Part shown: piece by piece, positions 3,243 through 59,498 of the stretch
Position numbering within the stretch: position 1 is the first letter of the stretch
How the letters are laid out: each line of letters begins with the position of its first letter
NCBI RefSeq assembly: GCF_006345805.1
Contig: NC_043001.1
Span: 59,954,001 to 60,018,000 of the forward strand
DNA length: 64,000 bases
Direction: 5' to 3'
From: Octopus sinensis
Taxonomy: Eukaryota
Notes under the pieces: generated by a model
What the model saw: the letters and a program-made list of their open reading frames with translations, nothing else
The model's database searches: none
What the model was told of the DNA's origin: nothing
Program-made: the position numbers and the translations under genes

Positions 3243-3315
3243 TAGCCATGATAAAACTCCGAGTGTCGGATGCCGAGGTGGAACCCACGCCGCCATCTCT
3301 TCAGTTATCTGGCCA
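3243..3315 (-). ncRNA. Decayed type I hammerhead ribozyme
   Basis: Minus strand reads tggcca-gataa CTGAAGA gatg...catc c GACA ctc g gag TT ttatc-a-tggcta; all three stems form, but GAAA is mutated to GACA. Confidence 0.6.
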
Positions 3316-4514
3316 TCGGAAAAATGCTATCTTTTCGGAGTTTTATCAATGCTACAGAATAATTGTCACATATTACATTTACAGACAAATTCCTCTATTT
3401 ACATAATATCGAGGTCTCTTTCTTTCTTTTGTTGTCTTACCAGCTTTATCAATATATAAATATATATATGCGAAATCTTGTGTGTGTGCATGCATGTGTG
3501 TGTATGCGTGTGTGTGTGAAGACGTGCACACATTTTCCTTTGTTTATTTATTTGTTTATGTATTTGCTTATTGAACGACATAACGGACAAAGTATTTGGA
3601 AAATGTGAATTGTCCACGTGACTGTTATTTTTTCTTTAAAATTTATTCGAGAATGATCCAAGGAAATATAATTTTTCACCAGTTATAAAAAAATCCACAG
3701 CTCTTGGATATATAACTAGTTTGATAAGTCCCAACGCACGTAACTCTCGGCTCTTTACTCACACTGTTGCTTCTGTTAAATATTGATACAAATATACTCA
3801 GATATAAACATGTTTTGAATTCAATAAGAGCATCAAGGCAAAAAAGTTAGAAATAGCACTCAGTACAAATTGGCTGACTGATTTTCGGCATAGAAAAGAC
3901 AGATATAGAAGGAGAAAGAAACCGAGAGCTAAGAAACAAAACCCGGAACCATTACGATTGTTAAAAGAGAAAAAGAGGTGGGCTGAAGTGAGATTTGTCT
4001 TGTCTAAAGGAAGGAAGGAAAGACTAACAGAGGAGAGAAACAAAGAGTTACGGCGGAGGGAAAAGAGAGAAGGAGTGTCGTAACAACAATGACGTCTATA
4101 CAGAAAGTAATACAGAAAGAATGTGAATAATGAGTTTTGCTAGACAACAGGCCTTAGGACAGGAGGAAAGAGGAGAGAGGAATAGAGAGAAATTAAATGT
4201 GAAACAATGCCATGTTTGAGACAAAACTGAGAGAGTGAAAAGGAGGATGTTAGTAGGACTGATGTAACTGGGAAAGAGAGGAATATTGGGCTACGGTATG
4301 GAGAAAATATTAAGGAGGCAGAAAGCTTCATGGACAGAATAACTCGTATGGTACGTACAGCGTGTATGTTTGTGAATATATGTATCTTTATATATGTGTG
4401 GATGCGAACGGGCATACGTGTCTACGTATACAGAGTTGCATACACACACAAATATATGTATACTGCACGCATTTTTTTTCTCTCCTTCTTTCTGTGTTTT
4501 TCTCTCTCTGTGTA

Positions 4515-4552
4515 TCTTTCTGTTGAAGAGCGTAGGCTCGAAACGTTAAAGA
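4515..4552 (+). ncRNA. Minimal hammerhead-like motif (A6U core variant) in a Penelope terminal-repeat fragment (~4448-4652)
   Basis: tcttt CTGTTGA a gagc-gtag-gctc GAAA cg TT aaaga; homologous to 5928-5965 at the 3' end of the Penelope element. Confidence 0.6.
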
Positions 4553-5168
4553 CTTGTTTTATTTATATTTCCTGAGCGCCATACTAATACAATTGTTCGT
4601 TTGTTTTCCACCTGCCTTCGTCTTTTGTTTATTTTCATAAAGCTTCCCGTTATGTATGTATGTATATAAGTATATACTTATCCACATGTACTAAGGTATC
4701 TATATGTACATGCATACATGAATATATATATATATATATATATATATATATATATATATGTGTATGTATATATGTATATATGTATATTTATATTATGTAT
4801 ATATATATATATACATACATACATGTATACATAAATATATATATACATACATACATACATACATATGAACATATATATATCATATTTCCATTATTCTATT
4901 TGCACTCCGATTATTTGGAAATCGAAAGGTTTTTGGCAATTAAATGTAGGTACCATCACCTTATAATAACAACCAAATAACCTATGACTGCCCGACTTTA
5001 AGTGCATTAAATTGGGTTTCTTCATATATTTAAACATTTATCTAATGCATAAATATATACATATATACAAAGTACATAAACATACATACACACACACAAA
5101 CACATATTTATATATACACATATATGCATGCAAATACATACATACACAAACATACGTATATGTACGTA

Positions 5169-5725
5169 AGGCCTAGTGCTACCACCTCTAGCCAACGGTT
5201 ATCCCGTGCCGATGAAGAGAATTAATCTAGAAAACATTGGTCCACAGGTATTGCTTTAGGCTGAGTGGTATTATTAGCTCCTTGTTCGAGATATAAGTAC
5301 GCAGTTGTGCGTCGATAGCCAACTGGTAAAGATGTTTTCCTGGGACTAAAATATGTAGTAACATTGTTATAATCAGGAATGTGAATTTAGGTTGGCAAAT
5401 ATACTTTAATTTGTAGTACTGTTACTACTAATTTCTCGGTCAGAGACTTAAAACTAATTGCTTTTATCCTTACGAGATCAGTGATTATGTGTCACTTTAA
5501 AAGTATATACCTCGAAGAAGGCCTAGCGCTACCACCTCGAGCCAACTTTTATCGTGTGCCGATGAAGAGAAATAACACATAAACCATCGGACCACAAGTA
5601 GCGTTTAAGGCTGGGAGAGGACATTAGCTCCTTTGTTCGAGGTATAAGGACGCAGTTGTGCATCGATAGACTGGTTTGGGCTTAAAAATCAGGACGTCTA
5701 GCGTACGTTGGCAAATAGATCTTAC
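5169..5725 (+). repeat. Diverged tandem repeat (350 bp period, ~1.6 copies) with decayed HHR motifs at 5203-5248 and 5553-5598
   Basis: aggcctag(t/c)gctaccacctc at 5169 and 5519; copy 1 reads gtg CCGATGA agaga-attaa-tcta GAAA acattgg TC cac. Confidence 0.65.
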
Positions 5726-56730: not shown

Positions 56731-57030
56731 ATATATATATATATATATGTATATATACATATATACATATATGCATATATATATATATATTATATATATA
56801 TATATGTATATATACATGTATATATACATAGATTTATATGTGTATATGTGTGTGTGGCTATATATACATATATATATGTATATATGAATGTATGTGTATA
56901 TATATATATATATATATATATATATATATATATATATATATATATATATAAAGAATAAAATGTTTTGGATGGTACAACATTGCACTATAATACAGACAAT
57001 GGGCTATATACCTGTTGAAATTTTGTCATC

Positions 57031-57178
57031 CATAGTCTGATAAGATATTTCGAAATAACATTCCTTCTTTAGGTAATCTTAGATGGTGTCGCTGTTTACC
57101 CGATTATAGCAGCGACTCTAAGAATGTTCGAAGAAGGAATGTTATTCCGAAATATCATATCAGATATATCAGACTATG
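57031..57178. repeat. ~150 bp imperfect hairpin (MITE-like)
   Basis: catagtctgata/tatcagactatg, aataacattccttctt/aagaaggaatgttatt and gtcgctg/cagcgac nested pairings. Confidence 0.75.
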
Positions 57179-57719
57179 TATATATATATATATATATATA
57201 TATATATATATATATATATATATATACCAGTGTAAAAAAATAAATGCGAAACAAGTTTGAAAATATATTACTCGAATACCAAAGGTTGAGTAATGTGCTT
57301 TATTAAAAAGCAGCAAAAATATCAACTAATCTGTTACTCCGAGGTTCATGGTCCCGTAAAACTCTGAATAACAATTTTATGTGATATTTTTGCTGTTTCT
57401 TAGTAATATATATATAATATATATATATATATATATATATATGCATGTATATGTATGAATATATATATATATATATATATATATATATATATACGCATAC
57501 ATATACAGTAATCTCCCTCGACTATTGCGGTTCTTACGTTCCAAAGCAATCCCGTGATATATATTATATATATATATATGTATATATAATATATATATTA
57601 TTTTCACACATATATGTATATATACATATATACATATATGCATATATATATATATATATATATATATATATATATATTATATATATATATATATATAATT
57701 ATATATATATATATATACA

Positions 57720-59498
57720 TTTGCAATTAAGGACAACTACTTAATAAGGAAAACTTAACAAGAAATTGTCAGGTGATAGCGTAAAAACCTCATAAGAGAA
57801 AAAATTTCGAAAATAATTATTTCTTATTGAACATATTAATTTATATATAGAGGGCATAATTATACATACATGCCAGGAGGCATTATATATACCTGCCAAC
57901 GCTAAGAGGGACAATCAGTCATTTCTGCCAAAAATATTACTAATCCCACCGAATGCAATTTTTCAAAGTAAGACATTTAAAAATATATAGGCCTGTATCA
58001 CAGTGATTTCATACTTACGTAATCATCAGCAGGCCTGAATGCATTATAAATAAACAACGACGACCTTGCCTCGCTTAAGCCGAACAGCTAACTGATCAAC
58101 ATCAACGAAGCACATGGGTGAGTTTATATATATTACATCCGGGTGAATGGCAAACTTTTACAAAATTGCATTTCGGGAGAGGAAAAGTTTTTTCGGAATA
58201 AAAATTTTGCAATTAAGGACAACTACTTAATAAGGAAAACTTAACAAGAAATTGTCAGGTAGATAGCGTAAAAACCTCATAAGAGAAAAAATTTCGAAAA
58301 TAATTATTTCTTATTGAACATATTAATTTATATATAGAGGGCATAATTATACATACCCAGGAGGCATTATATATACCTGCCAAACGCTAAGAGGGACAAT
58401 CAGTCATTTCTACCAAAAATATTACTAATCCCACCGAATGCAATTTTTCAAAGTAAGACATTTAAAAATATATAGGCCTGTATCACAGTGATTTCATACT
58501 TACGTATCATCAGCAGGCTGAATGCATTATAAATAAACAACGACCTTGCCTCGCTTAAGCCGAACAGCTAACTGATCAACATCAACGAAGCACATGGGTG
58601 AGTTTATATATATACATCCGGGTGAATGGCAAACTTTTACAAAATTGCATTTCGGGAGAGGAAAAGTTTTTTCGGAATAAAAATTTTGCAATTAAGGACA
58701 ACTACTTATTCACACCACTTCACCCGGATGTAATATATATAAACTCACCCATGTGCTTCGTTGATGTTGATCATTTAGCTGTTCGGCTTAAGCGAGGCAA
58801 GGTCGTTGTTTATTTAAATGCATTCAGGCCTGCTGATGATTACGTAGTATGAATCACTGTGATACAGGCCTATATATTTTTAAATGTCTTACTTTGAATA
58901 ATTGCATTCGGTTGGATTAGTAATATTTTTGGTAGAAATGACTGATTGTCCCTCTTAGCGTTTGGCAGGTATATATAATGCCTCCTGGCATGTATGTATT
59001 ATGCCCTCTATATATAAATTAATATGTTCAATAAGAAATAATTATTTTCGAAATTTTTTCTCTTATGAGGTTTTTACGCTATCTACCGACATTTCTTGTT
59101 AAGTTTTCCTTATTAAGTAGTTGTCCTTAATTGCAAAATTTTTATTCCGAAAAAACTTTTCCTCTCCCGAAATGCAATTTTGTAAAGTTTGCCATTCCCC
59201 GGATGTAATATATATAAACTCACCCATGTGCTTCGTTGATGTTGATCAGTTAGCTGTTCGGCTTAAGCGAGGCAAGTCGTTGTTTATTTATAATGCATTC
59301 AGGCCTGCTGATGATTACGTAAGTATGAAATCACTGTGATACAGGCCTATATATTTTTAAATGTCTTACTTTGAAAAATTGCATTCGGTGGGATTAGTAA
59401 TATTTTTGGTAGAAATGACTGATTGTCCCTCTTAGCGTTTGGCAGGTATATATAATGCCTCCTGGCATGTATGTATAATTATGCCCTCTATATATAAA
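57720..59498. mobile_element. Retrozyme-like array C (~475-485 bp units, same family as A), divergent arms, junction ~58708-58720, in (TA)n
   Basis: HHRs at 57989-58036 and 58474-58519 (-), 58826-58871 and 59301-59348 (+). Confidence 0.9.
59301..59348 (+). ncRNA. Type I hammerhead ribozyme
   Basis: aggcctg CTGATGA ttac-gtaa-gtat GAAA tcactgtga TA caggcct. Confidence 0.85.

Follow-up and report, generated by a model that had tools for sequence, protein, structure and literature searches.

Hammerhead ribozyme arrays in a 64-kb window of the Octopus sinensis genome: probable cephalopod retrozymes with a Penelope-like insertion anatomy

Repeats that carry a hammerhead ribozyme (HHR) have been described from animal genomes in several guises. 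Metazoan retrozymes without long terminal repeats (non-LTR retrozymes) are proposed to be moved by co-existing Penelope-like elements (PLEs) (PMC7229834; 10.64898/2026.07.22.740005), which have been called a "strong candidate" for this role (PMC7229834), while a 2026 preprint treats the mobilization mechanism as unresolved and suggests local satellite growth (10.64898/2026.07.22.740005). Endonuclease-bearing PLEs carry minimal HHRs (min-HHRs) in their pseudo-long terminal repeats (pLTRs), with palindromic or minimal stem III, and insert at AT/TA targets (PMC4209133; PMC8557442; PMC11167929). Inverted 5'-truncated copies, tails and a bias toward microsatellites are PLE hallmarks (PMC8557442), and a PLE protein in purified form was found to cleave AT-rich DNA on both strands and to extend each of them, with two internal start sites delimiting the tail (PMC11167929). 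In cave crickets, an HHR is part of the pDo500 satellite DNA of related species, with a unit of 463-505 bp (PMC2808323). Here we compare with these systems a stretch of 64,000 nucleotides from Octopus sinensis (NCBI RefSeq assembly GCF_006345805.1, contig NC_043001.1, positions 59,954,001 to 60,018,000 of the forward strand; hereafter the window, with positions counted from its first letter), in which three families of HHR-bearing repeats, termed A, B and D, agree in sequence features with non-LTR retrozymes and lie in insertions whose anatomy points to PLE-driven reverse transcription.

The density of hammerheads in the window is far above chance (all counts in this report cover the 64-kb window or public sequencing contigs). 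A strict descriptor of type I HHRs matched eight times, against no match in any of 40 block dinucleotide shuffles, and a scored descriptor returned 15 motifs at a score of at least 12 and 16 at a score of at least 9, against none at 8 or above in 30 shuffled windows. The initial annotation of this DNA had claimed many HHR elements and proposed a genome-wide descriptor search with shuffled controls as the check; a search of this kind on the window largely bears the claim out, with HHR motifs of at least eight families. The 15 high-scoring motifs fall into six insertions of four families (five in A1 and two each in A2, A3, B, C and D), and all have the core boxes and NUH site without a single core change, together with three stems that are open at stem I; pair 10.1-11.1 is mismatched in the motifs of A2, A3 and D. 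Stem III of the motifs in families A to D is palindromic, with a loop of 0-1 nt, a form believed to cleave as a dimer (PMC4209133). The 145 Rfam matches of the window at E values of at most 1 include no hammerhead, only microsatellite and palindrome noise, an absence that may reflect the departure of a 0-1 nt loop III and a long stem II from the Rfam models. HHR-bearing or candidate elements amount to approximately 11.3 kb, or 18% of a window that was picked for them and may be atypical. The window is repeat- and AT-rich (112 tandem-repeat rows), and its scanned open reading frames (ORFs) are all transposon-derived. General repeat finding was swamped by microsatellites, and masked self-BLAST was used for homology.

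The elements at 8-15 kb and 56-59 kb constitute a single family, A (73-99% identity in masked self-BLAST), whose three loci are 73-92% alike, while units inside one locus are 97-99% alike; successive cleavage sites are spaced 474, 475, 474, 480, 477 and 485 nt apart. The left arm of A1 (7914-8917, minus strand) holds 2.1 units of 474 nt with intact HHRs at 8186-8219 and 8660-8693, and its 3' end lies at unit position +272-274 after the cleavage site, in a (TA)n run. The right arm (plus strand) begins at an inversion junction inside stem II with an inner piece (8918-9059) severed by a long interspersed nuclear element (LINE), and continues beyond it (14342-15803) for 3.1 units, with intact HHRs at 14677, 15151 and 15626 and a 3' end at +143-154, again in (TA)n. 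A2 (55733-56729), approximately 75% identical to A1, has a unit of 480 nt, a longer stem II and inverted arms that meet at a palindromic junction near 56059; its HHRs lie at 56002-56046 (minus) and 56072-56116 (plus), and its arms end at +269-270 and +132-143. A3 (57718-59489), approximately 92% identical to A1, has units of 477 and 485 nt, of which 2.1 lie on the minus and 1.6 on the plus strand, HHRs at 57996-58029 (minus) and 59308-59341 (plus), and ends at +273 and +147-155. Between the A subfamilies, four of 16 pairs in stems I and II are compensatory, as in 3 of 500 shuffles, in a comparison of three sequences only. Variable positions number 19 in A1 and 24 in A3, across both arms, and almost all are private to one unit; those common to several units are indels in homopolymers or short repeats. 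Because the variants are private in this way, each A array was probably copied from one template in a single event.

Family B (32927-33727) consists of two inverted arms, 0.8 and 0.9 unit long, which jointly close a unit of 476 nt, with intact HHRs at 33159-33206 (minus) and 33532-33579 (plus). Family D (53772-54693, minus) comprises 1.84 units of 497 nt, with HHRs at 53907-53997 and 54404-54494 that have a long stem II and a 10-nt palindromic stem III; its second arm, inverted and very short, covers only about 20-30 nt (approximately 54665-54693). A retrozyme is expected to have at least two units in a row, all with their own complete type I HHR, and such units are present in A1 (two in one arm and three in the other) and in D (two), whereas B, which by itself lacks them, would qualify only after its unit is reconstructed by joining the arms. 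The longest stop-free stretch in tripled A, B and D units is 56-72 codons, GC content is 0.33-0.35, below the 45-50% ceiling applied to retrozymes, and the units folded as circles are more stable than their shuffles (z of -3.0 to -6.9, 25 shuffles each). ARAGORN detected no tRNA in the window, so the A, B and D units are not tRNA-bearing. As read from these features, A, B and D are separate, predicted non-autonomous units free of ORFs.

The resemblance to metazoan non-LTR retrozymes (PMC7229834; 10.64898/2026.07.22.740005) accordingly takes in the type I HHR in each unit, the low-GC (33-35%) non-coding tandem repeat, the self-paired predicted circle and the co-existence with PLEs. The retrozyme RNAs of one study measure 170-400 nt (PMC7229834), compared to units of 474-497 nt here, which fall inside the span of 51-972 bp given in the preprint (10.64898/2026.07.22.740005). 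Molluscs are not among the animals sampled in the preprint, and a term search of its text turned up neither inverted arms nor tails. A, B and D differ from PLEs in lacking an ORF, and from the pDo500 satellite in forming short dispersed arrays in inverted pairs (PMC2808323).

It is the anatomy of the insertions that connects these arrays to PLEs. In nine insertions (A1, A2, A3, B, C, D and those at 3.2 kb, 37.4 kb and 53.5 kb), two diverging arms terminate, at their 3' ends, in or close to TA runs, and the two arms of one insertion never stop at the same unit position. The combination of an inverted truncated partner, a one-sided tail and an AT-rich or microsatellite target was found in all nine, and an inverted 5'-truncated partner with a tail on one arm is likewise seen in PLEs (PMC4209133; PMC8557442; PMC11167929). 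The end points recur: A1, A2 and A3, three separate loci, have both in common (approximately +145 and +272), and a solo short B insertion (26084-26175, plus), lying between TA runs, ends at +237, where the long B arm at 33 kb also stops. The arms of B end at approximately +235 and at +146, and those of D at +135 and approximately +240-250. For the six intact insertions, 11 of 12 ends defined by homology lie within 12 nt of a run of at least five TA dinucleotides, compared to 7.5% of the window lying within 20 nt of such a run, and the earlier description of the elements as bounded by (TA)n is hereby upheld; among all listed ends the count is 21 of 26, which is partly circular in that the ends of relics were set by eye. 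Tail lengths are approximately 117 nt in C, 67 nt at 3.2 kb and 40 nt at both 37.4 kb and 53.5 kb, and span about 40 to 130 nt overall. This anatomy points to reverse transcription by a PLE-type enzyme rather than later satellite growth and, as a sequence pattern, supports PLEs as the shared class of mobilizer. The initial annotation had gone further in proposing one shared mobilizer; the class is backed by the anatomy, while a single mobilizer is not shown by tails that differ so much in length.

The model of local growth advanced in the preprint (10.64898/2026.07.22.740005) would here mean that one pLTR was inserted and then expanded as a minisatellite by unequal crossing-over. The 97-99% likeness of units within a locus is what such growth would leave, but the arrays occupy both inverted arms, three loci have both end points in common, and the unit variants are private instead of nested, and we regard this origin as highly improbable. 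The inverted arms might otherwise be fold-back artifacts of the assembly. The assembly seems to be error-prone, judging by frameshifts in the LINE and by HHR copies of which several have single-base deletions; a perfect 140-bp palindrome is present at 2060-2339, and no strand-changing joint occurs among the joints listed for public contigs. Against such an artifact, the arms differ by 1-8%, their ends are unequal and recur, and only one arm of A1 has the LINE and its target duplication; moreover, the position of the junction varies by locus, such that contigs need not show junctions. An artifact on this scale strikes us as scarcely credible. The palindrome at 2060-2339, which is centered on a TA run, is in its own right either a fold-back artifact or a young inverted insertion.

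A relic of a PLE lies in the window itself. A frameshifted, 5'-truncated relic (5838-7817, minus) has a coding part (6749-7817) that corresponds to the C-terminal part of a reverse transcriptase (RT) and a GIY-YIG-type endonuclease region, followed by a 786-nt 3' region that ends in (TA)n. Direct Pfam scans of two relic frames gave no match, and its identity came via 49 homologues, most with an RT domain (PF00078) and some with a GIY-YIG domain (PF01541), at up to 51% identity; in tblastn against the window all 49 match 6749-7817 alone. The CX2-5CxxC linker between RT and endonuclease, which together with RT phylogeny marks the Neptune clade of PLEs, is present in the three homologues shown and degenerate in the relic. 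A degenerate min-HHR (5933-5960) forms the 3' end of the relic, 786 nt past the stop. It scores only 4.7, yet it is 75% identical over 180 nt, by masked self-BLAST, to a solo 5'-truncated PLE end (4463-4650, plus) with a min-HHR at 4520-4547 that has one core change and, as in PLE min-HHRs (PMC4209133; PMC8557442; PMC11167929), a bulged A before stem II. From its sequence, then, 5838-7817 is identified as a PLE with an HHR-bearing terminal repeat, and the 4.5/5.9-kb family as a PLE terminus and not a retrozyme. By eye, 50170-50900 resembles another PLE 3' region, for which tblastn gave no match.

The window holds several further HHR-bearing sequences. Family C (42238-43627) has inverted arms and intact HHRs at 42391-42466 (minus) and 43525-43600 (plus); its tail is about 115-120 nt long, and neither a closed unit nor a PLE ORF was found for it in the window. 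The 3.2-kb relic (3213-3452), in (TA)n, has an HHR at 3255-3304 (minus) with one core change; its inverted arm is short and its tail measures about 65-70 nt. The 22.2-kb relic (21926-22538, minus), with ends placed by eye at TA runs, has an HHR at 22190-22259 with two core changes and a stem I of 5-6 bp. At 37.4 kb (37250-37535) an HHR with a perfect core (37362-37434, plus) has lost the 5' strand of stem I to the inversion junction, with a tail of about 40 nt. The 53.5-kb family (53357-53681), absent from the list in the initial annotation, is an inverted pair in (TA)n with a tail of about 40 nt and, in both arms, a U3-A8-type core, a variant also reported from PLE min-HHRs (PMC4209133; PMC8557442; PMC11167929). 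A tolerant descriptor scored these relics at 11.8 (3.2 kb; 0 matches per shuffled window), 9.4 (4.5 kb; 0.1), 9.0 (37.4 kb; 0.1) and 8.3 (22.2 kb; 0.55), and the scored descriptor gave the 22.2-kb relic 7.3 at a shuffled rate of 0.03 per window.

Two sites stayed unconfirmed. At 5.2 kb (5166-5735, plus), two 80%-identical copies 350 nt apart contain an HHR-like remnant that gave no descriptor parse at a score of 0 or above, and at 53.1 kb (52962-53292, minus), a possible relic between TA runs (53099-53230) without stem I scores 6.0, a level reached about five times (4.85) per shuffled window and hence not above chance. Eight of the ten HHR sites named at the outset are thus supported, by the 15 intact motifs and by the relics at 3.2 kb, 4.5-5.9 kb, 22.2 kb and 37.4 kb, and those at 5.2 kb and 53.1 kb are within chance. 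Lenient min-HHR matches antisense to family A (score 8.3) were not counted; at scores of 5-6, such matches arise by chance 5-13 times per shuffled window. A weak HHR-like parse at 38.1 kb (38065-38158) scores 7.7, with about two such matches per shuffled window. An inverted pair at 15890-17030 (86% identity over 223 nt), near TA runs, was rejected as an HHR element, having the first core box or a variant of it and no full parse; its right copy stands behind a TC-rich stretch that resembles a PLE 3' region.

For C, the 4.5/5.9-kb family and the relics at 3.2 kb, 22.2 kb, 37.4 kb and 53.5 kb, no same-strand repeat exists in the window and hence no tandem closed unit. C and the last four relics resemble truncated PLE ends, which they probably are. 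This raises the question of whether every family, A, B and D included, consists of 5'-truncated ends (pLTR multimers) of autonomous PLEs with no life cycle of its own. Such an account is true of the 4.5/5.9-kb family, which ends a PLE ORF relic, and likely for C and the relics at 3.2 kb, 22.2 kb, 37.4 kb and 53.5 kb; dual min-HHRs on opposite strands, 100-700 bp apart, have also been ascribed to truncated PLEs (PMC4209133). Extending it to A, B and D appears improbable given the closed units per arm (up to 3.4 in A and 1.84 in D, with one closed by B), the lack of an ORF between HHRs and the public contigs that join the end of an A unit to the start of the next. The initial annotation had named as its refutation the finding that all families are terminal repeats of Penelope elements, and this description covers the 4.5/5.9-kb family and likely C and the unit-less relics, but not A, B or D. 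Its ecosystem of ribozyme-bearing elements with a preference for TA targets is sustained; non-autonomous status holds for the ORF-free A, B and D, and not for the end of the autonomous PLE relic.

Public sequencing runs, consisting of contigs of which none is recorded as RNA (such that RNA status is guessed), extend the view of family A beyond the window. Of the 24 runs listed, 20 contain words from family A; they bear five organism codes, a spread over several organisms that recalls the occurrence of pDo500 in related species (PMC2808323), and four runs were compared with one A unit. In the large run X15, where family A is very abundant, 3715 contigs match this unit and 17 contain the unit-to-unit joint, which the probable RNA runs X1 and X11 bridge as well; family A is present in three probable RNA runs. 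A 152-nt contig of run X14 (record 13) differs from the unit at 14 positions, and among the ten differences listed, nine are A-to-G changes on the ribozyme strand within 14802-14861; the other two X14 contigs have 2 differences in 172 bases and 3 in 154. The nine sites are preceded by U in eight cases and by G in none (p of 0.006 relative to the contig interior and 0.04 relative to the narrow span), in agreement with the neighbor preference of ADAR, whose sites are depleted of upstream G (PMC5625713). At the same nine positions in X15, G is absent at six and below 1% at three. These ADAR-like changes are a lead, and no proof, for transcription and editing of family A.

From the motifs, closed units, missing ORFs, head-to-head arm pairs, TA targets and recurring end points, we infer a pathway that we hold to be quite probable: A, B and D arrays would be transcribed, cut by dimeric HHRs and perhaps circularized, and a PLE RT-endonuclease would prime from them two complementary DNAs (cDNAs) at a (TA)n run, which are joined head to head. 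Specifically, the ribozyme strand of the arrays would be transcribed, and the palindromic stem III would enable dimeric cleavage by two ribozymes; the monomers set free in this way may be closed into circles by ligation. A PLE protein would then bind the RNA and nick a (TA)n run on each strand; from either nick it would prime cDNA, starting at two fixed positions within the template (approximately +145 and +272 in A, +146 and +235 in B, +135 and approximately +240-250 in D). Whether the template is a circle or a multimer, each cDNA could extend along it for up to 3.4 units, and head-to-head joining of the two cDNAs would leave one arm with the longer "tail." Read-through of such arm pairs might finally yield long double-stranded RNA, a substrate for ADAR editing. 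PLE RT/GIY-YIG proteins acting in trans are likely to have inserted both A, B and D and the truncated PLE ends, and the presence in the window of an endonuclease-bearing PLE relic that ends in a min-HHR speaks for this pathway.

Several considerations weigh on the other side. The window contains no intact PLE, and A, B and D have no homology to the end of the PLE relic; no autonomous partner of theirs was found in the window. The tails of A, B and D reach 88-130 nt, compared to a published 30-40 nt, and several ends have 1-11 nt of TA-like sequence in common with the target, whereas the Anolis PLE starts without homology (PMC11167929). HHR cleavage was dispensable for insertion in the same PLE study, which saw no reads ending at the cleavage site (PMC11167929), and eight of nine Xenopus elements tested in the preprint showed no in vitro cleavage (10.64898/2026.07.22.740005). 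Isolated short motifs mostly form no three-way junction in their minimum free energy fold, with z weaker than -2 in 8 of 11, and folding of this kind did not separate real from doubtful motifs. The unit joint fits a circle and a tandem transcript equally well. The editing signal, finally, is one contig from another organism, with no matching DNA and a guessed RNA status.

The recurrence of unit size was a further claim of the initial annotation, which saw in it a possible size constraint. The sizes themselves (474-485, 476 as reconstructed, and 497 nt) were reproduced from the spacing of cleavage sites, and their recurrence is real in three families; the values of 474-485 nt all belong to family A, and B and D may be kin, such that the families are not securely unrelated. 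Profiles of A, B and D in nhmmer gave no cross-matches at E values of at most 10. A collinear alignment of B and D from the cleavage site has a z of 4.1, and none of 500 shuffles, 7 of 500 block shuffles and none of 360 window controls were as good. Kinship of A with B or D over the first 300 nt is unsupported (z under 1); local alignment gives z of 3-4.4 for A1 and A3 against B and about 0 for A2 against B. Three of four measurable units lie within 24 nt of one another, with a chance of approximately 0.008-0.05 under uniform priors if the families are independent; if B and D are kin, two of three units are alike, with a chance of 0.15-0.36. Family C has no closed unit, and the doubtful pair at 5.2 kb repeats at 350 nt, outside the range of 474-497 nt. 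One mobilizer might hold the templates of unrelated families to a size window of about 475-500 nt, and the clustering of the units, should they be independent, the lack of nhmmer cross-matches, the short-arm ends of A, B and D at +132-155 and the 463-505 bp unit of pDo500 (PMC2808323) all lean that way. Opposed to it are the three families chosen after the fact, the possible kinship of B and D, the pair at 5.2 kb, which breaks the pattern, the published retrozyme units of 51-972 bp (10.64898/2026.07.22.740005) and 350-390 bp in mussels (PMC7229834), and tails that differ from about 88 to 130 nt and suggest more than one PLE family. Such a window is unlikely in our judgment, and A, B and D probably owe their similar unit size to inheritance or accident; the recurrence does not establish a constraint.

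The remainder of the window is occupied by other repeats. The LINE in the right arm of A1 (9060-14341, minus) is an L1/Tx1-like element of approximately 5.3 kb, near full-length and frameshifted, that encodes an ORF1 with zf-CCHC, an APE endonuclease, an RT and a zf-RVT domain; it sits in a 23-bp duplicated hairpin of family A, is flanked by a 14-bp target duplication with one mismatch, and split the arm after the array had formed. The best homologue of its RT is from the octopod Argonauta hians (63%). A second L1/Tx1-like relic (27490-31200; 66-68% identical to the first) is broken by another LINE-like stretch, and a target preference of these LINEs for family A is unsupported, the second having inserted elsewhere. 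The 23-bp duplication of family A (14808-14854) is polymorphic, being missing from A2 and from one X1 contig. LINE relics at 26330-27360, 41003-42150 and 61000-64000 have a restriction-like endonuclease motif and lie beside (ATA/ATT)n runs; by motif and target they may be Dong/R4-like. Mariner transposase relics, 75-86% alike, are found at 20125-20848 and 35695-36738, the latter with HTH_48 and Transposase_1 domains. Three copies of a repeat resembling a short interspersed nuclear element (21481-21800, 32200-32520 and 46360-46520; 76-93% alike) adjoin microsatellites, and further palindromic or inverted-pair sequences (1-159, 57037-57163, 57311-57395 and 2951-3817), which gave no HHR parse, are either miniature inverted-repeat transposable elements or decayed PLE-type insertions.

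The class to which these arrays would belong is already known, namely non-LTR retrozymes, proposed to be non-autonomous PLE derivatives. Judged by titles and the beginnings of abstracts, we found no report of cephalopod retrozymes, though supplements and Repbase may hold such families as PLEs or unknown repeats; the words "ribozyme" and "retrozyme" are absent from the main text of a 2026 repeat annotation of Octopus vulgaris, and a literature search combining retrozymes with ADAR yielded nothing but one unrelated review. Added here are probable cephalopod members of the retrozymes, the PLE fingerprint on ORF-free arrays and the lead toward editing. With this fingerprint and two predicted start sites per family, retrozyme mobility becomes testable in an in vitro PLE assay that is already published. 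Near-perfect inverted repeats are unusually numerous in octopus, where hyper-editing is also at its strongest (PMC5625713), and head-to-head insertions are therefore a candidate source of double-stranded RNA. A bolder proposition, to which we give limited credence, is that octopod genomes are among the densest hammerhead ecosystems, that unrelated retrozymes converged in them on about 475-500 nt and on the paired start sites of one PLE enzyme, and that their obligatory head-to-head insertions may be a major source of the double-stranded RNA on which the extreme A-to-I hyper-editing of octopus acts.

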